Part shown: positions 13,001-39,355 of the stretch, in pieces
Numbering within the stretch: the stretch's first letter is position 1
Layout: every line of letters starts with the position of its first letter
Origin: Bacillota bacterium
GTDB lineage: Bacteria > Bacillota > Clostridia > Peptostreptococcales > Anaerovoracaceae
DNA length: 46,252 nt
Assembly: GCA_016283945.1 (NCBI GenBank)
Contig: JAEENW010000084.1
Coordinates: 1-46,252 of the forward strand
Direction of reading: 5' to 3'
The notes under the pieces: generated by a model
What the model saw: the letters and a program-made list of their open reading frames with translations, nothing else
What the model was told of the DNA's origin: nothing
Database searches by the model: none
Translations under genes and position numbers: made by a program

Positions 13001-16000
13001 CGCGGACATCGAAGACATCTTCACCCCGGCAAGCGCCGCGGAGCTCGCGAGGCTGACTAACAAGGTCACGGAGCTCCCCTGGACCGTGGACAGCGAAGAG
13101 AGAAATCCAGCGAACACCGAAGGGCTAAGGGTTACCATAGACCTCGGCAGCGACAGGAACGGCTGGAACTACGAGGACATCGACTGGAAGAACTCGTTTA
13201 TCTCCGTCTACTCCGACAGCGATCCCTACGCTGCGGTCTCCCAATACGACTTGATCACGGACAGAGATTATTGCATGCTCTGCGCCACCGGCAGCGGACC
13301 GGTCCAGACCCTGACCCTGCCGGAAATTGATCTGGAGGGGGAAGGCGTCGATTACGCCAATCTGTTCCTTATACTGGCGAGACACAGCGCGCCAGACGCG
13401 CCCTACGCGATCGAGCTGTACGCGGGAGGCGAGGAGTTCGTCTTCGACGGTACCGAGCCGGGAAAGCTCGAGCTTCAGCATCTCGGCAGACAGTACGAAG
13501 ATGAAGAGGGACGCTACTACGATCTAGCCTTCGACCCCTCATCGACCATCTATATACCGACGGAAAGCACTCCGGTCGCGCTCTCCGTGGAAGCCCTCAG
13601 ACGCTGCACTTCCTACAATGGCGATGAACCGTATACCGAATACAAGTCCTTCGACTTATATGACAAGGACGTCGCCGGAGTCATAGGCGCGGTCGACATC
13701 GTCGCCTGGAACGCTGACGATCCCGACGAGAAGATCAGCCTCGCCTGCTCCTGGTTCGATTACAGCAACAACAACGGTCCCGGAGAGGACGACCCGAGAT
13801 ATATCTACATGTACGAGGACGGCAGCGAGGCCCTCAGGAGCGGAAAGCGCCTGCTCCGCTTCGGAGACGCGACCGACGCGTCCACGGGAACCATAGGCGT
13901 AGAGGCGGGGAAGGACAATACAGTAGCCCTGCAGATAGTCTGCGCCAACGGCAGCAGCTCCGAGATCTGCTACATCACCGTCCATCCGGTGAAGATCGGG
14001 CTGGAAGGGGAGGTCTCGATAGAGACACCCTACGATCTGGATCTCAAGGGAAACGCGAGCGTCGCGACCGTGGGGCCGGACGAAGCGTACATCGTGTTCA
14101 GTCCGGACAGCGGATATAACGCCGAGGGACTCGAGCTCTTCGCCGCCTGGGGATATCTCCGCACTGACGGCAGCTACGGGTTTGATTCGGGGATCCCCAT
14201 GACCATGCAGGGCGACGGCAGCTGGAGGGCGAAGGTCCCGAACGCGGATTTCTGGTCATGTCTGGACCATCCTGATGACTATATGACCTGCGGGATAATA
14301 AATCCCATGTACGACTCGGAGATTGGCCTTACCGGCTACTCGATCCCGATGGATTTCGAAGATGGCTACATCGATCTGACACATCACGGGAACCTGAGCG
14401 ATCCGCCTCCTTACTACGTCGTTTACGCTGCCGATCAGTACGGGAATAAGCATGCGATGGGCATCACCGACTGGGCTGTCGTTGCCGACAGGAGCGCGCC
14501 CCTGTTCACGAGCGATAACATGCGGCCGCTGGGCAGCATAGACACCGCTTCGGACGGCACGTACACCGCGGCCTTCGAGCTGGTCGACGACAGCTTCTAC
14601 TCCTGGGATTCCTACAGCGGAGAGATCATTTCAAGGCCTGTCACCCTCGAGTTCTTCTTCGACTCTAAATACGCCGAGGCAGCCGGGAAGCCGGCAGCGA
14701 GGCTGACCCTGAGCGGGATAGAGGACGGTTTCGTCTGGAAGGACGGAGACGGAAACGGCACGGGCATATACGAGGTGACCGCTGAGATGGTCCGCGAGGG
14801 CACGTTCAACAGCCACAATTACTACGGAGAAATAGCCACATACGCAGGCGGAGCGAAGTTCGCGCGCATGATCGTCACCGTTAAGGGCGCGGTAAGCCCC
14901 GAAGTGACGGCGCCCATGCCCATGACCCTGTTCGCGAAGGCGACGGACGCTCACGGCAATACCAACGGATGGACAATGCCGGACGCGGACTTCCAGTATT
15001 TTGACGATATCATGGACGAGGGAGACTACGCCAGATTTGACAATCCCGGCGTGGTACACGCGAGAAGCGTCTCCGGCGTCAAGCCGAAGGTGACCGGCAC
15101 CGTCTACAAGAGGACCGGTGAAGGTGACGACATGGCACTTTACGTCAACTTCAGTGCTCCCGTGCGTCCGCTCGAGAGCTGGATACGCTCGAGCGACGGA
15201 GAGCCGGAGGGCTACAGCACCGAGTGGCACGACGCCTTCCCGATCTGTAAGGACGGCAGCTGGAACATAAGCTACAGCGACCCCTTCGGCAATACCTACA
15301 CGGAGGAGCTGGCACTCGACGGCGTGTTCGGCGAGTACGGCTACGATCTTTCCTTCTCGACCCTCGACTGGGTCTCCAAGGAGACCGGAGTCACCGTTAC
15401 GGCGGTCGAGGACGACGACAGCGAGAGCCTGAGCGGAAGGGCGCAGTACAGCGAGGGCGGCGCCTTCGAGGATATGCCCGAGGCCACGGCGACCTTCACG
15501 CAGAACGTCCACGAGTATCAGATCGTGCGCAGCGCGAACGGCAAGAATGACATACTGCGCGTACACATAGGAAACATAGTCGACGGAGCTCCGGAGGAGA
15601 CCCTGTACTTCCGCATGGACGAGTTCAGCAGGACCTACAAAGAGGGTACGCAGCCCCGGGGCGAGACCTTCGGAAACGTCACCGTCTCGTACAGGACCGA
15701 CCGCGAGACCAGCCCCGTGGGCGCCACCGAGAAGACCTTCAGGGAGGGCGACGACGACAGCTTCAGCTTCAGATACTATGACGCCGCCACCGATAAGCAA
15801 TACACCATCAACGGAAGCCTCGGAAAGTACGGTATCAGCATTGGCCACTTCGTTCCCTACGAGGACGAGGAGGCCCCCTCGATAGACCTGGTCAGCGTCT
15901 GGAAGCAGAGGGCTGACGGCTTCATACAGGCGGACGCCTTCCCCGGCAGCGCGGACGACGATGCGGTAAAGGCCTCAATTGCCGCCTGCGGCACCGCCCA

Positions 16001-24648: not shown

Positions 24649-26211
24649 ATGGAAAAAACAACTATCAAAAAATCGATACGGCGCATAGCGCTGCTGCTCA
24701 CAGTGCTTCTGGCGCTGGCGGGGTCCTCCGATGCGGCGTTCGCAGTAAACGCGGACGCCGCTCCCCCGGCATGCCCCCGCGTCCGTATCGCCTTCATAGA
24801 CAGCGGGATCAGCACCAGGCACATAGACGAGAGCCTGGTCGAGCCCGGAAGAAACTACGTTTTCCCTGAAGCGGATACCCGGGACAGGATAGGCCACGGC
24901 ACCGCTGCCGCGAGCCTCGTGCTTGGTTCCGCCGATCAGGGAGTGCCCGGAGCGCCTTGCTTCGCTCCGGAAAACGGCCAGGGGAGCTTCGCTGAAGACT
25001 TCTCCGGCCTGCCTGAAGAGCATCTCCCCGTCCCCCCAGGGGCGATGAAAGCAGCCGCGGCCGTCCCGCTCGTAGTCATCGACGCCTATCCTACGGGCGC
25101 GATAAAAAACGGCGGGACGGAAGCGCTCTGCCGCGCGATCTTCGACGCGGTGGACGAATTCGGCTGCAGCATTATAAACATAAGCCTTTCGACCTCCGAG
25201 GACAGCGAGGAGCTAAGGAGAGCCTGCGCCTACGCGGAGGAGAAGGGCGTAGTCATAGTGAGCGCCGCGGGAAACGACGGAGAAGGCGGACCTGCATACT
25301 ACCCGGCGGCCTACGGCAGCGTGATATCCGTGGGAAGCTCCAGCGGCGGCGCCGCGGCCGGCTTCTCGGGAAACGGAGCGTACGTGCTGGCTGAGGGCGT
25401 CGATCTGACTGCGGCGAGCTGCAGGAACGGGAGCGCTCCCGTGACGGTGAGCGGGACATCTTACTCCTGCGCGATCGTGACCGGCGTCTGCGCCGGGATC
25501 AGGGCGCGTTATCCGGACATGACGCCTGCTGAGGTCCGCGAGGCGCTCGCGCAGCTTGCCGAGGACATGTACGAGCCCGGCTTCGACGCGAGGAGCGGCT
25601 GGGGAAGGGTCTCGAGGGACGCTGAGGTCCCGTATCCCTTCAGGGATCTGCCTGCCGGAAGCCAATATCTGGAAGCGGCTCTGTCCCTGTCCGGGATGGG
25701 CATTATGAACGGCTGCGGCGGGCTCTTCATGCCGGACGCCCCGATGACGAGGGCTATGACGGTCTGCGCTCTGCACAGGCTGGCCGGAAGCCCCGAGCCG
25801 GCGGGGTACGCGAAGCGCGTCGAGGACAGCGAAGCAGATCGGCCCGCTGAGGAAGCGAAATCGGCTGATGCAGGGCATTCTGTGGAAGCCGCGTTGCCGG
25901 ATGAATGGTACTCCGAAGCCGCCATGTGGGCGGCTGAGCAGGGGATAACAGAGAGCGTCGGATCCGCGCCCGGTGAGGCCGTCAGCGCGGAGCAGCTCCG
26001 GGCCGCTCTGAAGAGAATGGCTGAGATACTGAATGTCAGTGCGGTGATAGAAGACGGGGCTGCGGAAGACGAGACTTGTGCAGATCCCGCGGAGCATGAG
26101 ATGCCGGAAGGACCGGCAGATACCGCGGAGCCCGCGGTATCCGGAAAGCCGCTGACGCGCGGTGAAGCCGCGCTGATGATCGAAGCGTTCACGAGGATCA
26201 TGGAACCCTGA
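24649..26211 (+). CDS. secreted S8-family (subtilisin-like) serine protease with C-terminal SLH-type repeats
   Basis: Signal peptide ...LALAGSSDAAFA. Catalytic Asp (IAFIDSGIS), His (GHGTAAASLV), oxyanion Asn (SAAGNDG) and Ser (SGTSYSCAIVTG). C-terminal FRDLPAGSQYLEAALSLSGMGIMNGCGGLFMPDAPMTRAMTVCALHRL is one clear SLH, followed by two degenerate SLH-like units. Confidence 0.85.
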   Translation: MEKTTIKKSIRRIALLLTVLLALAGSSDAAFAVNADAAPPACPRVRIAFIDSGISTRHIDESLVEPGRNYVFPEADTRDRIGHGTAAASLVLGSADQGVPGAPCFAPENGQGSFAEDFSGLPEEHLPVPPGAMKAAAAVPLVVIDAYPTGAIKNGGTEALCRAIFDAVDEFGCSIINISLSTSEDSEELRRACAYAEEKGVVIVSAAGNDGEGGPAYYPAAYGSVISVGSSSGGAAAGFSGNGAYVLAEGVDLTAASCRNGSAPVTVSGTSYSCAIVTGVCAGIRARYPDMTPAEVREALAQLAEDMYEPGFDARSGWGRVSRDAEVPYPFRDLPAGSQYLEAALSLSGMGIMNGCGGLFMPDAPMTRAMTVCALHRLAGSPEPAGYAKRVEDSEADRPAEEAKSADAGHSVEAALPDEWYSEAAMWAAEQGITESVGSAPGEAVSAEQLRAALKRMAEILNVSAVIEDGAAEDETCADPAEHEMPEGPADTAEPAVSGKPLTRGEAALMIEAFTRIMEP

Positions 26212-26294
26212 GAACGGCAAGACGTTGTGAACACACCCGGACCTGCCCAAGGCGGCCGTTTCAGGCCTCCGGCGGCGGCAGGGGATAAGAAGAG

Positions 26295-26329
26295 CCGGGG
26301 CGCTGAAGGACGGCGCTCCGGTTGTGTTT
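26295..26329 (+). terminator. rho-independent terminator after the S8 protease gene
   Basis: CCGGGGCGC / GCGCTCCGG 9-bp stem (one G-U pair) followed by TTGTGTTT. The complementary side is followed by a T-rich CTCTTCTTAT, so it may act in both directions. Confidence 0.6.
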
Positions 26330-26333
26330 AAAA

Positions 26334-26373
26334 CCGATAACTATTCCTAAAATCATAATTTTCGGTATAGTTA
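26334..26373 (+). repeat. AT-rich 40-nt motif, copy A (second copy at 39317-39355)
   Basis: CCGATAACTATTCCTAAAATCATAATTTTCGGTATAGTTA versus CCGATATATTCCTAAAATATCATATTTTCGGTATTCTTA. The two are collinear, with only three short indels and two substitutions. Confidence 0.8.
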
Positions 26374-27075
26374 TAGCGGACAGGGGGTGTCATAACGGTT
26401 CTCCGGGTCCCCCGAAGTCCCCCGGAGCCTCAAAGTCCCCCGGGCGGCTCTGGGGCGCTCTGGAGGACTCACATCGATTAAACAGTATTCTTCTGTTACT
26501 GAACGGCGCGCTTGCCTCGGCGTCATCCGCTGCGCGCCGCATACGCTTTAATGGATCCCGCGGTGGTAATCGATATGAGCTTCATCATGCCCGGCAGTCT
26601 GTATATCCCGCAGGCATCGTCAGCTCCGAGGGTCTGCATCTCCTCCGGAGCCTTTTCGGCGCTCCGCAAGCTGCTTATAAGCACGAGGCTCTGAGAGCCG
26701 TTTTAAGCGACTTTAATACCCCTCGTCGATATATGATACCTCCGCGCTCAAAGTCCTCTCAGACGAAGTCTCAGTTCTCTGAGGCTGAACGCCGGATAAT
26801 GCGCTCGGATGGACCGGCTGCCTGGCTCCTCCGCGGACTTGCGCAAGCTCCGCCGGCACTTCCCGGGATCAGCCGGCGCATAAGGCTTCTGACCGGTCCC
26901 GCGCACGGCAGCCTGCCCGGTTTGGACGTCAGTTCACACATTCACTCAGGGCTGAGCGCCGTGAACCGCTGACATGCTGAAACAGCAAAGTGCTTAACCG
27001 TATACTGTTACAGTCAATATCTTGTATCGGCCCGGATCCATGGCTTCAGGGGCCGTTTTGCGCCCGTACCCTGCG

Positions 27076-27089
27076 CGAACATTTGTTCT
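27076..27089. promoter_or_regulatory. LexA (Cheo-type SOS) box 4
   Basis: CGAACATTTGTTCT fits GAAC-N4-GTTC and is 13/14 identical to box 2 at 28754. It overlaps the stop codon of the SprT-like gene. Confidence 0.65.
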
Positions 27090-27615
27090 AACGGGGTAGG
27101 AGCTTTCTGGTCGCCATGGGTTCGCAGCCGACCTCCAGACAGGCTGCCTTCCAGACCCGGTCGTGCCCGTGCCGGACGCTTCCGTCCCTCAGGTACACCA
27201 GCATGTGCGCGTACTCATGCCTGATGACGTCGGTGAACAGCCCGGCGTCTCCGAGTATGCGCGCCGACACCGCTATCTCCATGCCGCCCCAGGATGCCCC
27301 TTCCCTCCTCAGGGTAAAGGTCCCGAGGCGCCTCACCATGCGGGTGGAGATCCTGACGGAGCAGGAGCTGCTGTCGACGCCGCAGAGCGCGTCTAGCCTG
27401 CGGTATTCTTCCCTTATAAGGGCAATCGCGCGCTCCTTTTCCTCTTTTGTGACGCTTACAGGAGGCGCCGGAGGACGGCGCGATGAGCGGCGGGACGAGG
27501 GACGCCCCGGCCCGCCGGCTTTACCGGGCTTCGCGCCGCGGCCGGAGCTTCTGGATCTGCCGCGCTGAGGGAGCCCGAACAGGCCTTTTCCGAAGAGGCT
27601 CAGCGTATGGACCAT
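27088..27615 (-). CDS. SprT-like zinc metalloprotease domain protein with a basic N-terminal tail
   Basis: C-terminal VIRHEYAHMLVYL...HGHDRVWKAACLEVG (HExxH then HG..W) and RISTRMVRRLGTF are SprT-family signatures. The N-terminal ~55 aa are Arg/Ser/Pro/Gly-rich. The 5' end overlaps the SIMPL gene by 16 nt; the start codon is uncertain. Confidence 0.7.
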   Translation of the reverse strand: MVHTLSLFGKGLFGLPQRGRSRSSGRGAKPGKAGGPGRPSSRRSSRRPPAPPVSVTKEEKERAIALIREEYRRLDALCGVDSSSCSVRISTRMVRRLGTFTLRREGASWGGMEIAVSARILGDAGLFTDVIRHEYAHMLVYLRDGSVRHGHDRVWKAACLEVGCEPMATRKLLPR

Positions 27616-28259
27616 ACGGCGACCAGGCTGCAGTCCGCGTTCACGTCCGCGGGGGTGATGTCCATGGCGAAGGACTCCTCAGCAACGGCGTCGTTCATCT
27701 TGGCCATGCGAAGGCTCATCGGCCTGACCGTGAGATCTGAGCCTATCTCAGAGGAATCCACGCTGACGAGCCTGTCGAGATCGACTCCGCCTGCGGTAGC
27801 CAGCACCTCGGCTCTCTCGCGGGCGTCGGCGAGAGCTGCCTTCAGGAGCTCGTCCCTGACCCCGTCACGGTTCTTTACGGTATAGGCGATGTGGAACTCC
27901 GGATCGGCCTCGCAGGACGCCAGAGACGCCAGGCAGCGGCCCAGGAGCTCGTTCTCTATGGAGAAGCTCACGCTCATCTGATGGTCGAACCTGTAGCCGG
28001 CGAAGCGCTGCCTGTACTCGCCGTTCTCGTCCCTGTAGGACTCGTAGCGGTCGGATATGTTGAAGGAGCCGGTCTTGACGTCCTCGGGATCGAAGCCGAG
28101 CCCGGTGAATATGGCCTTGACCGAGGCCGACTTCTCAGAGGCCATCTTTATGGTCTCCCTGTAGTCGGAGCACTCGCCGCTGATGTTCATATTGAGCACT
28201 GTGGTGTCCGGCGCGAGGCTGAGCCTGCTCCTGCCGGTCACTCTGATGTACCTGTCCAT
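27600..28259 (-). CDS. SIMPL-domain (DUF541) protein without a signal peptide
   Basis: AGGAGG lies 6 nt upstream of ATG 28259 (MDRYIRVTG...). The product's overall pattern matches the SIMPL/26-kDa immunogenic protein family, but no hydrophobic leader is present. Confidence 0.6.
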   Translation of the reverse strand: MDRYIRVTGRSRLSLAPDTTVLNMNISGECSDYRETIKMASEKSASVKAIFTGLGFDPEDVKTGSFNISDRYESYRDENGEYRQRFAGYRFDHQMSVSFSIENELLGRCLASLASCEADPEFHIAYTVKNRDGVRDELLKAALADARERAEVLATAGGVDLDRLVSVDSSEIGSDLTVRPMSLRMAKMNDAVAEESFAMDITPADVNADCSLVAVWSIR

Positions 28260-28274
28260 TTCGTTCCTCCTGTG

Positions 28275-28302
28275 AATAAACGGCGGCAGTTTGCCTGCCG
28301 CC
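28275..28302 (-). terminator. stem-loop plus U-tract between the YneA-like gene and the SIMPL gene (terminator or attenuator)
   Basis: Minus strand reads GGCGGCAG-GCAAA-CTGCCGCC followed by GTTTATT, only about 15 nt before the SIMPL RBS. Confidence 0.5.
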
Positions 28303-28388
28303 ATCTATGATACCACACGCTGATGGAGTTTTCGAGTTTTACGCCTTCAGGGCTGCCCCGCCGGGAGCCAGCCAGCGACGCGCCGGCT

Positions 28389-28685
28389 CTAGCTCTGAGG
28401 GATGAGGAGGTTCTGCCCGGGGACCAGAGTATAAGCGCTGACGTCGTTGATGGCGCAGATGTCCTTTATGACGAGGCGAACGTCCTTGTCCGAGGGTCCG
28501 TAGGTCCTGGCGAGATCCCAGAGCGTGTCGCCGCTGACGACCTCGACGCTGACGTAGGTCTTCTCGGGATCGCTGTAGGCGCGGTCCATGCCGGTGAGAT
28601 TGCCGATGATGAGGCTCAGCGCCAGCAGGACGCAGGCCGTGAATACCGTGAATCTGAACTTGTTGGCTATCCTGTATCTCTTCAT
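28389..28685 (-). CDS. YneA-like SOS cell-division inhibitor (N-terminal TM helix plus LysM domain)
   Basis: The 98-aa product is MKRYRIANKFRFTVFTACVLLALSLIIGNL..., followed by a LysM domain (VEVVSGDTLWDLARTY...INDVSAYTLVPGQNLLIP). GAGG lies 7 nt upstream of ATG 28685. Preceded by a LexA-box-covered promoter. The longer ORF-track start (28775) runs through the promoter. Confidence 0.8.
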   Translation of the reverse strand: MKRYRIANKFRFTVFTACVLLALSLIIGNLTGMDRAYSDPEKTYVSVEVVSGDTLWDLARTYGPSDKDVRLVIKDICAINDVSAYTLVPGQNLLIPQS

Positions 28686-28724
28686 GTCTGTACCTCGCTT
28701 TCGAAGTGAGCATGGGGGCGTCAA

Positions 28725-28738
28725 AGAACGTTTGTTCG
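28725..28738. promoter_or_regulatory. LexA (Cheo-type SOS) box 1
   Basis: AGAACGTTTGTTCG (GAAC-N4-GTTC), just downstream of the -10 element on the minus strand. Confidence 0.8.
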
Positions 28739-28745
28739 CAGTGCT

Positions 28746-28775
28746 ATAATAGCAGAACATTTGTTCTTTTGTCAA
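28746..28775 (-). promoter_or_regulatory. sigma-A type promoter of the YneA-like operon
   Basis: Minus strand reads TTGACA (28775-28770), an 18-nt spacer, then TATTAT (28751-28746). Confidence 0.7.
28754..28767. promoter_or_regulatory. LexA (Cheo-type SOS) box 2
   Basis: AGAACATTTGTTCT lies inside the -35/-10 spacer of the minus-strand promoter. Confidence 0.8.
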
Positions 28776-28785
28776 TGATCAATTT

Positions 28786-28799
28786 CGAACATTCGTTCT
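28786..28799. promoter_or_regulatory. LexA (Cheo-type SOS) box 3
   Basis: CGAACATTCGTTCT lies upstream of the -35. A perfect TATAAT (plus strand 28829-28834, read on the minus strand) sits about 30 nt further upstream and may be a second promoter. Confidence 0.75.
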
Positions 28800-28848
28800 T
28801 TTTTTGTTTCCCGCCTCTTTACGGTACCATTATATCAGGATGCCTGTA

Positions 28849-28877
28849 CAAAAATAGCGACAGCCAAAGCTGCCGCT
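28849..28877 (-). terminator. rho-independent terminator after the ynbB-like gene
   Basis: Minus strand reads AGCGGCAGC-TTTG-GCTGTCGCT followed by ATTTTTG. Confidence 0.6.
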
Positions 28878-28983
28878 TTAGATCGGTATAAGCGTTGATA
28901 TCTCAACGTTTTTCAGAGTGCGCGCCCTGTCGGATATCGAGATCCCGGCACGCAGGGCTTCCGCAGGCCGCCTCTCCGCTGCC

Positions 28984-30270
28984 CTACAGGAGTCCCCTGT
29001 CCTTCAGGGACTGGAGCACCTTCATGAGCCCGAACTTGGCGTGGTCGTAGCTCAGCGCCCCCTGGAAGTACGCGGTATAGGGCTCCCTGAGTGGAGCGTC
29101 CGCAGAGAGCTCCATGGTGCTGCCCTGGACGAAGGAACCGGAGGCCATGATGATGCTGTCCTCGTAGCCGGCCATCTCGCCGGCCTCGGGAGCGTAATGG
29201 GCGTTTATAGGAGCCGCGGCCTGCACGCCCTCGCAGAAGGCGGTGAGCTGCTCCTCGGACTTCATGCGTATCGCGGTGACGACATCGTTCCTCGGATCCT
29301 CGGCTCTGGGGCTGACCTCGTAGCCGAGCTTCTCGAAGGCCTTGGCGAAGAGAGCGGCGCCCTTGATCGCCTCGCAGACGGTGCGCGGAGCCATGAATAT
29401 GCCCTGGAGTATCCTCCTGGTCTGGTCGTACATGAGGCCGGCGTCGGTGCCGATCCCGGGCGCGATGACCCTGTAGGAGACGGTCTCGACGAGATCAGCT
29501 CTTCCGGCGACGTAGCCGCCTCCCATGGCGATGCCGCCGCCGGGGTTCTTCATCAGGGAGCCCGCCATTATGTCGGCGCCGACGGCCACAGGCTCCTTCG
29601 TGTCGAGGAACTCGCCGTAGCAGTTGTCGACCATGCATATGATACCGGGCTTCACGGACTTGCAGGCGGCCGCCCACTCGCGTATCTCGGGAATGCTGAA
29701 GGCGTACCTGAAGGAGTAGCCTATGGACCTCTGAAGCACGGCGACCCTGGTGTTATCCTTTATCGCGGCCTTGACGCCCTCGATATCGATCTTCATATCC
29801 GCGGTGAGCTCGACCTTGTTGAAGCTAACGCCGTAGCTCCTGAGAGAGCCGTTGCCGTCGCCCTTGAGGCCGATGACGGTCTCCATGGTGTCGTAGGGCT
29901 CGCCCGTGCAGTACAGGAGCTCATCGCCTGGGCGCAGCAGCCCCAGATAGCAGCACGCCAGAGCGTGGGTCCCGTCGCAGATAAAGGGACCGACTATGCA
30001 GCTCTCGGTCTCAAAGGCGGAGGCGAACACCTTGCCGCAGACGGCGCGGCCCGGATCGTCGTGCCCGTAGCCGTTCGCCCAGGCGAAGTGAGTGTCGCTG
30101 ACGTAGTTGTCGTGAAACGCCCTGAGCACCTTGTACTGGTTGTATTCCGCTGTGCGCTCGTAGCGGGCGAAGACCTCCGCGATCTCCCTCTCGGCCTCGT
30201 CGGCCATAGCTGAGACCTCATGATCGATCCCGTAGTTCCTCTTAAGAAAATCCTTTGTAAGCTGATCCAT
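28984..30270 (-). CDS. methionine gamma-lyase family / aluminium-resistance family PLP enzyme (YnbB-like)
   Basis: Roughly 428-aa product with blocks typical of this family: FHDNYVSDTHFAWANGYGHDDPGR, ICDGTHALA and SLMKNPGGGIA (PLP-Lys region). Start set at ATG 30270; the TTG at 30297 has no RBS. Confidence 0.7.
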   Translation of the reverse strand: MDQLTKDFLKRNYGIDHEVSAMADEAEREIAEVFARYERTAEYNQYKVLRAFHDNYVSDTHFAWANGYGHDDPGRAVCGKVFASAFETESCIVGPFICDGTHALACCYLGLLRPGDELLYCTGEPYDTMETVIGLKGDGNGSLRSYGVSFNKVELTADMKIDIEGVKAAIKDNTRVAVLQRSIGYSFRYAFSIPEIREWAAACKSVKPGIICMVDNCYGEFLDTKEPVAVGADIMAGSLMKNPGGGIAMGGGYVAGRADLVETVSYRVIAPGIGTDAGLMYDQTRRILQGIFMAPRTVCEAIKGAALFAKAFEKLGYEVSPRAEDPRNDVVTAIRMKSEEQLTAFCEGVQAAAPINAHYAPEAGEMAGYEDSIIMASGSFVQGSTMELSADAPLREPYTAYFQGALSYDHAKFGLMKVLQSLKDRGLL

Positions 30271-31803: not shown

Positions 31804-32943
31804 TCACTTTCCCTCATCCGGCTTGATCATGTCGTCGCCCCACTCGAAGCCCTTTATGAGCTCGCGCTTGGTGTTGAGCCTGTGCGCGGCGTAGAGCTGG
31901 GTGGTGGTGACGTTGTCGTGATCGAGCAGCTCCTGAACGTCGTAGACCGAGTTGCCGCGGCCGATGAGGCTGGTGGCGGCGGTAGCTCTGAGCTTGTGCG
32001 GACTGTAGCCGCGGTCTCTCGAGGTCCCGAGCGATATAGAAGTGTATTTCTTGACTATCTGCCTGAGCTGCCTGTCCGTGAGGCGCGTGCCCCTAAGGCT
32101 CAGCAGCAGCGCGTCCCTGCTCTCCGGCGGGAGCTCTTCCTCGGGCGCGCGCTCGAGGCTCACGTATTCCGAGAAGGCCTCGCTTATGGTGCGGTTGACG
32201 GGCATGATGGATTCCTTGCCTCTCTTGCGGTAGATCTTGAACTCGCCGCGCTCGAAGTTGAAGGAGCTCACGTTGAGCTGCTGAAGCTCCGAGAGCCTGA
32301 GCCCGTAGGTCAGAAGCAGCAACAGTATGAGCTTGTCCCTGAGCTTGGTCTTCTCCCAGTAGTCCTTCTCGTGCTCAGTAAGCCCGTCGCCGGTGACCAC
32401 GGCGTCGAGCATGCGCATGACCTCGTCGTCCTGCAGGGCCTTGATCTCCCTTTCGCCGGGCTTGGGCAGCCTTATGGGATCGAAGCCGTCGGTAATGTTG
32501 GAGCTTATGACCCCGTCCCTGTAGAGGAACTTGAACATGACCGAGAGCGAGGACTTCTTGCGGCTCAGCGAGGCGTTGCTGTTCTCGTAGACCGTCTCTA
32601 TGCCGTCCTCGTCCTTCACCGAGTAATGCCTGCAGTAATCGATGAAGTAGTTGACATCGCGGGCCTTCAGGGCGTCTATGTCCTCAGCCCTGATCTCCTT
32701 TATATCCTTCCTATCGGAGCCGAGCGGGGTCTCCGAGAGCAGATACGAGAAGAAGAAGCGTATGTCCCTCAGGTACGAGAGCCTCGTGAGAGGCAGCGAG
32801 TTGCCGTTTAAGTAGACATAAAATCCTTTCAGAAAACCCGGCAGCTGTTCCTGCAGCTTCCGGTATTCGTCCAGGACCTTCGCCTCTCTCTCGACTACGT
32901 TGTCCGGCTTATCTGTCTTGTTCTGGATCTTCAGCTGAGGCAT
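31804..32943 (-). CDS. tyrosine-type site-specific recombinase (XerC/XerD/phage-integrase family)
   Basis: C-terminal catalytic region: LRLSEL (Arg I), SPHKLRATAATSLI (HxxR) and LDHDNVTTTQLYA (His then the nucleophile Tyr). N-terminal SAM-like core-binding domain. The start (32943 or 32973) overlaps the miaA 3' end. Confidence 0.8.
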   Translation of the reverse strand: MPQLKIQNKTDKPDNVVEREAKVLDEYRKLQEQLPGFLKGFYVYLNGNSLPLTRLSYLRDIRFFFSYLLSETPLGSDRKDIKEIRAEDIDALKARDVNYFIDYCRHYSVKDEDGIETVYENSNASLSRKKSSLSVMFKFLYRDGVISSNITDGFDPIRLPKPGEREIKALQDDEVMRMLDAVVTGDGLTEHEKDYWEKTKLRDKLILLLLLTYGLRLSELQQLNVSSFNFERGEFKIYRKRGKESIMPVNRTISEAFSEYVSLERAPEEELPPESRDALLLSLRGTRLTDRQLRQIVKKYTSISLGTSRDRGYSPHKLRATAATSLIGRGNSVYDVQELLDHDNVTTTQLYAAHRLNTKRELIKGFEWGDDMIKPDEGK

Positions 32944-33847
32944 ATCTCCTGATCTCCCCGTATGTATCCTCATCGAATCCGCTGCCGCGCAGCGTGAACC
33001 ATCTCATGCCCTCTATTCGCCTGAGCCAGGTGTACTGCCGCTTGGCGAGGTGCCTGGTGTTGAGCTTGATCTGCTCCGCGGCGTCCGACGCGGGACGCCC
33101 CTCCCTGAGGCAGGCGATGACCTCCTTGTAGCCTATGCCCTTCATGGAGATCTCGTCCCCGCTGAGGCCCATGTCCAGGAGACATCTGACCTCGTCCTCG
33201 AGGCCGGCTTCGAGCATGAGCTCGACCCTGCGGTCGCAGCGGCTGTATAGCTCCTCCCTGTCCCGCGTGAGCCCTATGAGCACCGGCTCATAGGAAGCCG
33301 ACGGCCTGAAGCTCTCGCTGAATGGGCGGAGGCGCCCCTCGCCCTTCTCGAGCCTCTCGACAGCCCTCAGGACGCGCTTGACGTTGTTAGGATGTATCTG
33401 CGCGGCCGCCCCGGGATCTAGCCCGGCGAGCCTCGCATGCAGGGCTTCGGCGCTTCCGCAGCGCTCGAGCAGCTCCCTGCGGTACTCCTCGTCCCCCTCC
33501 GGAGATGAGAAGTCCATGTCGTAGATGACGCTGTTGATGTAGAGCCCCGTGCCGCCGCAGAGTATGGGAAGCCTGCCGCGCGAACTGACCTCGGCTATGC
33601 GCTCCCTCGCCAGCGCGCTGTAATCGGCCGCGCTGAAGCTGCGCCTCGGGTCGATCTCGCCTATGAGGTGATGCCTCACGGCGGCGAGCTCCTCCGCGGA
33701 GGGCTTGGCGCTCCCTATGTCCATGTGCTCGTAGATCTGCATGGAATCGGCGGAGATTATCTCGCCGCCCAGGTCCCGCGCGAGCCTTATGGAGTATTCG
33801 GTCTTCCCGACGGCGGTCGGTCCCGCTATGACTATGAGCCTGATCAT
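32909..33847 (-). CDS. miaA: tRNA dimethylallyltransferase
   Basis: MIRLIVIAGPTAVGKTEYSI (P-loop) then ISADSMQIYEHMDIGSAKP. ATGA overlap with the mutL stop. The longer ORF-track N-terminus is an Arg-rich read-through of mutL. Confidence 0.9.
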   Translation of the reverse strand: MIRLIVIAGPTAVGKTEYSIRLARDLGGEIISADSMQIYEHMDIGSAKPSAEELAAVRHHLIGEIDPRRSFSAADYSALARERIAEVSSRGRLPILCGGTGLYINSVIYDMDFSSPEGDEEYRRELLERCGSAEALHARLAGLDPGAAAQIHPNNVKRVLRAVERLEKGEGRLRPFSESFRPSASYEPVLIGLTRDREELYSRCDRRVELMLEAGLEDEVRCLLDMGLSGDEISMKGIGYKEVIACLREGRPASDAAEQIKLNTRHLAKRQYTWLRRIEGMRWFTLRGSGFDEDTYGEIRRYASAEDPEQDR

Positions 33848-39316: not shown

Positions 39317-39355
39317 CCGATATATTCCTAAAATATCATATTTTCGGTATTCTTA
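39317..39355 (+). repeat. AT-rich motif, copy B (partner of 26334-26373)
   Basis: CCGATATATTCCTAAAATATCATATTTTCGGTATTCTTA lies in the dxs-tlyA intergenic spacer. It contains the imperfect palindrome CCTAAAATAT-C-ATATTTTCGG. Confidence 0.8.

Follow-up and report, generated by a model that had tools for sequence, protein, structure and literature searches.

Results

A Long Gene-Free Gap in an Anaerovoracaceae Contig

The longest stretch without codon-biased open reading frames in the 46,252-nt window analyzed here, contig JAEENW010000084.1 of an Anaerovoracaceae genome (assembly GCA_016283945.1), spans positions 26212-27087. This gap comprises 876 nt, compared with 208 nt for the runner-up, as judged by a crude gene call that keeps frames of at least 80 aa in which the G+C content at third codon positions (GC3) is well above that at second positions (GC2). 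A sequence-only reading of the window had likewise placed its longest non-coding stretch here, bounded by a repeated AT-rich motif and a LexA box, and had proposed a large structured RNA, an SOS-linked RNA, or a decayed gene. The left edge of the gap carries the predicted chromosome dimer resolution site, dif; a conserved element lies within the gap, and the operon at its right border is of the SOS type. Left-arm genes, all on the plus strand, end at 26211, and right-arm genes, on the minus strand, end at 27088. The features of the gap and its right border are listed below, where L089 denotes the closest relative found, a metagenome contig whose SprT-like and SIMPL proteins are identical to those of the window.

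26337-26374, no strand: predicted dif, ATAACTATTCCTAAAA-TCATAA-TTTTCGGTATAGTTAT, with its core at 26342-26369; predicted target of an XerS-like recombinase
26322-26972, plus strand: 216-aa open frame with a TTG start, passing through dif; judged a non-gene
26375-26596, no strand: variable spacer between dif and the invariant block, with three copies of GTCCCCCG and a 14-bp inverted repeat
26597-26828, minus strand: invariant block of 232 nt with zero differences from L089, holding the conserved element; its flanks differ by ~14%
26667-26750, minus strand: conserved element of ~85 nt, reading GGTAT, ATCGAC, (A)7-8, RTCGCTTAAAWCG, and AGAGCCTCG in order (the last two also given as GTCGCTTAAAACG and GAGCCTCG)
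26829-27075, no strand: variable spacer between the invariant block and the LexA box, with the second and third nested helices proposed earlier; ~35 differences from L089
27076-27089, no strand: LexA-type box, CGAACATTTGTTCT, overlapping the stop codon of the SprT-like gene; identical in L089
27088-28775, minus strand: SOS operon, with a YneA-like LysM gene (28389-28775), a SIMPL/DUF541 gene (27600-28304), and a SprT-like protease gene (27088-27615)

A Predicted dif Site and the Probable Replication Terminus

The AT-rich palindrome at 26337-26374 combines the defining properties of dif, namely a single copy, a position at the terminus, and conserved arms around a variable center, and we identify it as the predicted dif of this chromosome. 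Its core, TATTCCTAAAA-TCATAA-TTTTCGGTATA, extends to a 16-6-16 palindrome of 38 bp, so that inverted arms of 11 to 16 bp surround a 6-bp center. When 26300-27100 is compared with 40 relatives at the DNA level, two short islands are conserved and the rest is without similarity. The first island is the palindrome, which is 88-95% identical across genera with a G+C content of ~35% to 62% and whose flanks are not conserved. In 25 of 41 relatives, a two-arm pattern with a free 6-bp center has just one matching place in the genome, compared with almost none for the reversed pattern used as a control; in the window's own genome a position weight matrix (PWM) for dif scores 54 bits at this site and 3.6 bits at the next best.

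An alignment of 37 distinct sites shows how the palindrome is constrained. Information content is 2 bits per position in the arms and 0.4-1.5 bits in the center, which occurs in 14 variants. One outer arm position has two states, and in 30 of the 37 sites both arms switch together. At one inner position the arms always differ, the arm nearer the recombinase having C/G and the distal one T, and this invariable asymmetry gives dif a fixed polarity.

The base composition of related chromosomes changes sign at the same point. In a complete genome of 1.816 Mb (G009), GC skew is +0.14 to +0.21 at 1, 285, 475, and 524 kb, falls to between -0.07 and -0.16 at 564, 620, 810, 1140, and 1420 kb, and is +0.17 at 1600 kb; within 544-564 kb the sign changes at ~554-556 kb, and dif lies at 554,062. 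Across 30 further Anaerovoracaceae loci, the mean skew is +0.068 in the 4 kb before dif and -0.093 in the 4 kb after it, with a sign flip at dif in 27 of 30 loci and at a control point 5 kb upstream in 1 of 28. In the window, AT skew shifts from ~+0.15 to -0.12 at dif, and gene strand flips as well.

Taken together, these data lead us to a reading, which we put at a probability of about 80%, in which the gap is the intergenic zone of the replication terminus, with dif at its left edge and a non-coding remainder that is not one functional unit. Genes of the two chromosome arms would converge in the gap, where dif would separate joined daughter chromosomes, and the long gene-free gap would lie here because this position is the terminus. 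The sequence-only reading missed that its AT-rich boundary motif is the predicted dif and that the gap is the replication terminus. The assignment locates both the terminus and the predicted dimer resolution site for an uncultured group of rumen and gut Clostridia.

The AT-rich motif is indeed repeated, as had been claimed, with copy A at 26337-26374 (6-bp center) and a second site 13 kb away.

39323-39350, no strand: dif-like copy B, TATTCCTAAAA-TATCATA-TTTTCGGTAT, with a 7-bp center, in the same orientation as copy A

Copy B is a direct repeat of the dif core at 26342 that lacks the outer palindrome. It lies between a dxs-like gene and the next minus-strand gene, ~35 nt upstream of the start of the latter. 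There is no GC-skew flip at copy B, and no comparable second site was found in the genus or family among the 40 relatives searched. The two copies share a species-specific CGGTAT arm variant, which suggests recent copying. The intervening 13 kb carry housekeeping genes (mutS, mutL, miaA, and xer) that are syntenic in relatives without copy B. An integrative mobile element exploiting Xer (IMEX) flanked by dif and copy B was considered and rejected, given that the copies bracket these syntenic genes.

Two observations in the window itself count against the terminus reading. The second dif-like site is a caveat on the criterion of one copy per chromosome. In addition, the window's own GC skew flips weakly at copy A, from +0.049 to -0.016, so that the terminus assignment draws mainly on evidence from the relatives, gene strand, and AT skew.

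A Recombinase Gene Linked to dif

The genome, which is 95% complete, encodes three tyrosine recombinases: a phage-type integrase, a 292-aa protein of the XerC/D type, and a 389-aa protein from the window.

31804-32973, minus strand: 389-aa tyrosine recombinase, XerS-like (Pfam PF00589); presumed dif enzyme

The gene for the 389-aa protein is linked to dif across relatives. Its orthologue and dif share a contig in nearly every relative, 26 bp to 9 kb apart; the distance is 1.9-9 kb within Anaerovoracaceae and 5.4 kb in the window. When the count is restricted to the 33 Anaerovoracaceae loci with at least 8 kb of sequence downstream of the recombinase gene, dif lies 1.9-6.9 kb downstream in 30 of them, with constant side and polarity. 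This linkage, together with the near identity of the two dif arms, suggests that the 389-aa rather than the 292-aa protein would act at dif, where, as in other members of its family, it would presumably exchange strands at the 6-bp center. Within Anaerovoracaceae, the recombinase gene reads toward dif. In four genomes from other families of the order (G027, G029, G038, and G040), a dif-like site lies 26-67 bp upstream of the recombinase start, in the likely promoter region. The orthologue in one genome of the same genus (G002:C53:129632-130765) contains two in-frame stops, one TGA and one TAA; it may be a pseudogene, the assembly may be in error, or the match may extend past the ends of the gene.

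A recombinase gene linked to its site is described as a hallmark of the single-recombinase systems XerS/difSL and XerH/difH (PMC5357621). The closest parallel is XerS/difSL of streptococci and lactococci (Le Bourgeois 2007, PMC1914069; reviewed in PMC5357621). Both systems have one long recombinase linked to its own site (356 aa for XerS, 389 aa here) and a site at the terminus; the left arm of difSL, TTTCCGAAAA, is close to the arms found here, TTCCTAAAA and TTCCGAAAA; and the 389-aa protein has XerS as its top-scoring NCBIfam family. In contrast to difSL, a 31-bp site with an 11-bp center (PMC5357621), the center here is 6 bp and the palindrome reaches up to 16 bp per arm. The match is also far under the XerS cut-off (144 against 267 bits), and the Anaerovoracaceae gene is 2-7 kb from its site rather than adjacent, adjacency (26-67 bp) being found in the four sister families. 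Since the protein falls below the XerS cut-off and its site has a 6-bp instead of an 11-bp center, we call it XerS-like and not XerS. A XerS/difSL-like activity of the 389-aa protein at dif is a prediction based on linkage.

XerH/difH of Helicobacter and Campylobacter (PMC3325230, PMC5241119) shares with this locus a single recombinase, of 354-362 aa, encoded near its site, and an arm asymmetry that gives the site polarity. The left arm of difH, AGTTATGAAAA, is similar to the outer and inner arm found here (AGTTAT...AAAA). The phylum differs, however, and structure 5jjv of XerH is matched weakly (E 4e-9), less well than XerA or XerD; these three are the solved relatives of the 389-aa protein.

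The dif site of the XerCD (CodV/RipX) system of B. subtilis and E. coli has the same 28-bp geometry, with 11-bp arms and a 6-bp center, and likewise combines a single copy, a GC-skew shift, and conserved arms. The left arm here, TATTCCTAAAA, also resembles the B. subtilis dif arm, ACTTCCTAGAA. What sets the present site apart is that its two arms are almost identical and vary together, which suggests that one protein binds both, and that one XerC/D-type gene, of 292 aa, is found.

The assignment of the enzyme has its own weaknesses. The top NCBIfam match of the 389-aa protein, XerS (NF003462), reaches 144.1 bits and thus stays below the cut-off of 267. The 292-aa protein, the sole XerC/D-type gene product found in the genome, is itself below both equivalog cut-offs, and it could act at dif in place of, or besides, the 389-aa protein. 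Full-text literature searches found no description of a XerS/XerH-like single-recombinase dif type for this group of Clostridia; a dif of that type would provide a testable pair of enzyme and site.

The Remainder of the Gap Lacks a Recognizable Gene

The only long plus-strand frame in the gap is the 216-aa frame at 26322-26972, which the sequence-only reading had already noted to start at TTG and to lack the GC3 bias of its neighbors. Its G+C content at codon positions 1, 2, and 3 is flat (0.61, 0.55, and 0.57), as is that of the gap in general (0.57-0.62), whereas the neighboring genes have a GC1 of 0.55-0.66, a GC2 of 0.44-0.57, and a GC3 of 0.74-0.84. The codon log-likelihood is below zero in all six frames of the gap. 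On the minus strand the longest frame is 56 aa, in agreement with the earlier statement that none reaches 60 aa. The 216-aa frame is mildly longer than expected from dinucleotide shuffles (P 0.004-0.02), and in L089 it is split into pieces of 70 aa and 112 aa by one 10-nt and two 1-nt indels.

Searches for coding content were negative. Eight frames from the gap, including the 216-aa frame, have zero matches in Pfam, and no homologue of the 216-aa frame was found in 151 family genomes, in a collection of 5.8 billion proteins, or in viral contigs. Neither tblastx and blastn of the gap against its own genome nor a search of the gap with the cargo proteins of relatives recovered a gene remnant, and tblastn found no trace of the PNPOx-like gene that one relative (G002) carries at the corresponding place. 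A recognizable protein-coding gene or pseudogene was rejected, for want of codon bias, homologues, and frame retention in relatives. The proposed frameshifted remnant fares no better, given the flat composition, the absence of Pfam matches and homologues, and the lack of any remnant of a neighbor's or relative's gene. A decayed gene may have eroded past recognition, with no positive evidence left in the gap.

The gap had also been read as a possible large structured RNA, on account of nested complementary segments. The listed motifs are all exact: ATCGATTA at 26473 and TAATCGAT at 26567, AACAG at 26481 and CTGTT at 26493, GGCGCGC at 26505 and GCGCGCC at 26532 in the first nest; CCGGCTG at 26814 and CAGCCGG at 26870 in the second; and GTTCAC at 26932 and GTGAAC at 26961 in the third. 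The triple GTCCCCCG (26407, 26417, and 26435) and the 10-mer CTCAAAGTCC, present twice (26429 and 26747), are likewise where they had been placed. On either strand, the 700-nt stretch is more stably folded than its dinucleotide shuffles (z -3.3 and -2.9, from only 20 shuffles). Since this excess is equal on the two strands, it points to inverted repeats in the DNA and not to a strand-specific RNA. Of the individual helices, the first nest (26465-26582) is marginal (z -1.9 on the plus strand, -3.2 on the minus strand), whereas the second (26806-26884) and third (26926-26972) are no better than shuffles and are broken in L089.

A single large non-coding RNA occupying the whole or most of the gap is, in our view, highly improbable. 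The excess folding and the marginal first nest would fit it, as would two changes in L089 that turn first-nest pairs into G-U pairs on the plus strand. Against these stand the equal excess on both strands, the two nests at shuffle level, and an Rfam scan of the whole window that at gathering score gave zero families, with ROOL, GOLLD, OLE, raiA, RNase P, tmRNA, 6S, and SRP included; at E<=10 over 26150-27200 there are just four chance-level hits, every one left of 26424. Moreover, beyond the conserved element the gap cannot be aligned even inside the genus, and among relatives the interval varies in length from ~200 to 900 bp. This missing conservation already appears largely to refute the large-RNA reading. 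For annotation, the 216-aa frame should not be called a gene, nor the gap a large RNA.

The first nest includes a 14-bp inverted repeat, CTCA(C/T)ATCGATTA, at 26470-26580, with arms ~75 bp apart; it is unique in the genome and is the only nest that scores even marginally.

A Conserved Element between the SOS Operon and dif

The second conserved island, at ~26684-26741, belongs to an element of ~85 nt (26667-26750) that is single copy in its own genome. A covariance model of seven sequences yields single matches in 12 further genera, and with a profile hidden Markov model the element is recovered in at least 37 recombinase loci; there it invariably precedes dif by 114-592 bp, lies on the recombinase side, and keeps one orientation. 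The element is conserved across the family Anaerovoracaceae, always pointing toward dif. A scan of metagenomes with a 21-mer from the island gave 51 hits, of which just four are true (L061, L089, L103, and L110). In one locus (L147), a second, inverted copy lies 1.85 kb beyond dif (15238-15314, E 3e-8); this is the sole flanking pair in 37 loci.

The element follows genes of the SOS response. Pfam matches to LysM, SIMPL, and SprT-like domains support the operon assignment in the window, and the box at its end, CGAACATTTGTTCT, fits the Firmicutes palindrome of the CGAAC-N4-GTTCG type, such that LexA binding is predicted. LexA-like boxes lie upstream of the element in all 31 relatives compared. 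The usual arrangement in the family has a yneA-like LysM gene of ~100 aa upstream, whose end is 36-210 nt from the element. In the window, an extra LexA box, the one that closes the gap, lies 335 nt upstream of the element, after the YneA-like, SIMPL, and SprT-like genes. Family-wide, a fixed order runs from LexA boxes through a yneA-type SOS operon, the element, and a variable spacer to dif.

In B. subtilis, the yneA SOS operon encodes a LexA-controlled division inhibitor with a LysM domain. The genes described here resemble it in having a promoter with LexA boxes and a small protein with a transmembrane segment and LysM. They differ in that the operon forms the final transcription unit ahead of dif throughout the family and is followed by a conserved non-coding element; we know of no such link between operon, element, and dif in B. 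subtilis.

Most relatives have a long hairpin after the element, centered on TTGAAATTTCAA. Its outer stems vary in sequence and stay complementary, reaching 19 bp in L131 and 18 bp in L147. In 26 of 31 loci, the 62 nt that follow the core fold more stably on the strand reading toward dif than on its complement (mean difference -2.7 kcal/mol), a count that overstates independence because the loci are related, and an effect that is modest in size. The same comparison at eight control offsets within these loci gives counts of 14-20 of 31, with mean differences of -1.1 to +0.4. These observations suggest, tentatively and at somewhat below even odds, that the element is an RNA feature that ends an SOS-induced transcript, either as a 3' untranslated region or as a short RNA, in which a conserved unpaired segment is followed by a stable hairpin. 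The two lines that point to action as RNA are the orientation of the element and the strand asymmetry of the hairpin. The earlier proposal of an SOS-linked transcript is borne out in part: the element is downstream of LexA boxes in every relative compared and the hairpin is more stable on the strand running from the SOS operon to dif. No convincing promoter overlaps the LexA box at 27076-27089.

Several results sit poorly with an RNA, beyond the relatedness of the loci. RNAalifold on 30 copies of the element gives no consensus structure, the hairpin has a U-run in just 4 of 31 genomes and is degenerate in the window, and a canonical sigma-70 promoter is present on neither strand, the TATAAT-like box not being kept across genera.

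Some of these results fit instead with an element that acts as double-stranded DNA, a terminus site bound by a protein. Such a site might be a polar barrier that halts forks past dif, or an accessory or insulator site for Xer/FtsK. Conservation is mostly in the primary sequence, with blocks ~10 bp apart and an invariant A-tract, and the palindromic core TTGAAATTTCAA is kept as sequence; together with the missing RNAalifold consensus, this argues for a DNA site. So does the arrangement, since the element is single copy, has fixed polarity, and lies just past dif for a fork arriving from the other arm; the inverted pair across dif in L147 has the geometry of a fork trap. Nevertheless, we regard action as double-stranded DNA as rather unlikely. 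The element lies anywhere from 114 to 592 bp away from dif, unlike the fixed accessory sequences of cer and psi, and it is on one side of dif only in 36 of 37 loci. No candidate binding protein has been identified, and stems that vary yet stay complementary, with a strand-biased fold, argue for a single-stranded form. The same features delimit the likeness to known systems: cer/psi accessory sequences and Ter sites (bound by RTP or Tus) are also conserved, polar, non-coding DNA beside a Xer site or at the terminus, but their sequences are dissimilar to the element, which in addition has no known cognate protein.

A broader interpretation would make the order of operon, element, and dif a functional unit rather than an accident of synteny, and the element a new feature of the Anaerovoracaceae terminus, one dedicated to coupling dimer resolution with the SOS response. 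The coupling could work through an SOS-induced RNA transcribed from the yneA-type operon toward dif or through a polar site that halts forks or transcription before dif. We consider this interpretation unlikely at present; a short non-coding element fixed between an SOS division-inhibitor operon and dif throughout a family is worth following in any case.

Three assignments for motifs in or near the element were tried and set aside. A sigma-70 or sigma-D promoter within the element was rejected for either strand, the TATAAT-like box missing its last T in most genera and there being no conserved -35. The TAAG-N16/17-GTCGATAT spacing is 1-2 nt over and is not kept. A plus-strand intrinsic terminator, GGCTCTGAGAGCC followed by a T-run, was rejected on the grounds that the stem is lost in genera that retain GAGCCTCG.

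The Empty Interval between the LexA Box and the Element

The 335 nt between the LexA box and the element might be what remains of a yneA-type gene that has decayed past recognition, with the box as a relic of its promoter. The usual distance between LexA box and element is 350-600 nt with a yneA-like gene inside; here it is 335 nt, and the interval is empty. A box of the form GAACATTTGTTC also occurs directly past the stop of the preceding gene in L129, L131, L133, and L140, at 358-436 nt upstream of the element in the first three, and the longest frame in the gap is somewhat above chance (P 0.004-0.02, as given above). Such a decay is nonetheless quite improbable. A profile of 23 YneA-like proteins scores negatively in all six frames of the gap, compared with 139 bits for the true gene; codon-position composition is flat; and the long open frame is on the opposite strand. 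Moreover, divergence from L089 far exceeds the ~1% expected for neutral decay from the adjacent genes.

Variable Spacers on Either Side of the Element

Comparison with L089 reveals a sharp contrast between the gap and its surroundings. The two sequences differ at 81 columns in total: 68 substitutions (42 transitions and 26 transversions) and 13 indel columns. About 80 of these columns fall within 26376-27085, whereas the adjacent genes (27086-29580, 2.5 kb) have 11 differences, or 0.45%. The spacer next to dif, 26375-26596, accounts for 44 differing columns (34 substitutions and 10 deleted positions), including the 10-nt indel, and cannot be aligned with other species of the genus. The other spacer, 26829-27075, has no similarity to relatives, phages, or plasmids. 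The spacers that flank the invariant block thus diverge ~30 times faster than the adjacent genes, with no base-specific signature among the differences. The invariant block between them reflects either strong constraint or a recombination mosaic, two sequences having been compared.

Relaxed constraint alone is insufficient to account for ~14% divergence next to ~1% at synonymous positions. It is more probable that recombination, with an end near 27085, brought in divergent DNA, or that dif has repeatedly received insertions that then eroded. This rapid local divergence on both sides of the element is also worth following. Similarity between the window and L089 ends exactly at the outer edge of dif (L089 1-121 against window 26200-26335), and the sequence to the left of it in L089 is unmatched in the window's genome. 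One of the two lineages therefore carries different left-arm DNA, which in the window is an operon for a giant exoprotein and an S8 peptidase.

The spacers could accordingly be the eroded remains of DNA inserted at dif, either an integrase-less IMEX that used the host Xer or small cargo cassettes. The content between the element and dif differs among genomes: five loci have a DUF6054 gene, two have some other small gene, and the others have nothing recognizable; the end of L089 similarity at dif, its unmatched left flank, and the ~30-fold divergence, as for acquired or recombined DNA, point in the same direction. However, 26375-27110 contains no degenerate second dif (all PWM scores below -34) and no coding remnant, and blastn against phages and plasmids finds no similarity, nor is there any to viral contigs. 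A dif-type site occurs in just two viral contigs, and the right-hand spacer, 26829-27075, is not adjacent to dif at all. We therefore judge inserted DNA an unlikely origin of the spacers.

Among relatives, the interval between dif and the block that holds the element measures 50-590 bp. In L129, L130, L131, L133, and L140, the DUF6054 gene, of 115-116 aa, comes right after the element hairpin and is the last gene before dif. The small genes between element and dif in the other two loci encode a Cys-rich protein of 125 aa (L150) and a membrane protein of 102 aa (L180). The dif-adjacent spacers of other species of the genus have their own short direct repeats, GACGTTCGC three times in L007 (G002; 1660-1800) and GCRAAGATCCA twice in L026 (G001; 1421-1433). 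In G001, a LexA-like box lies 70 nt from dif.

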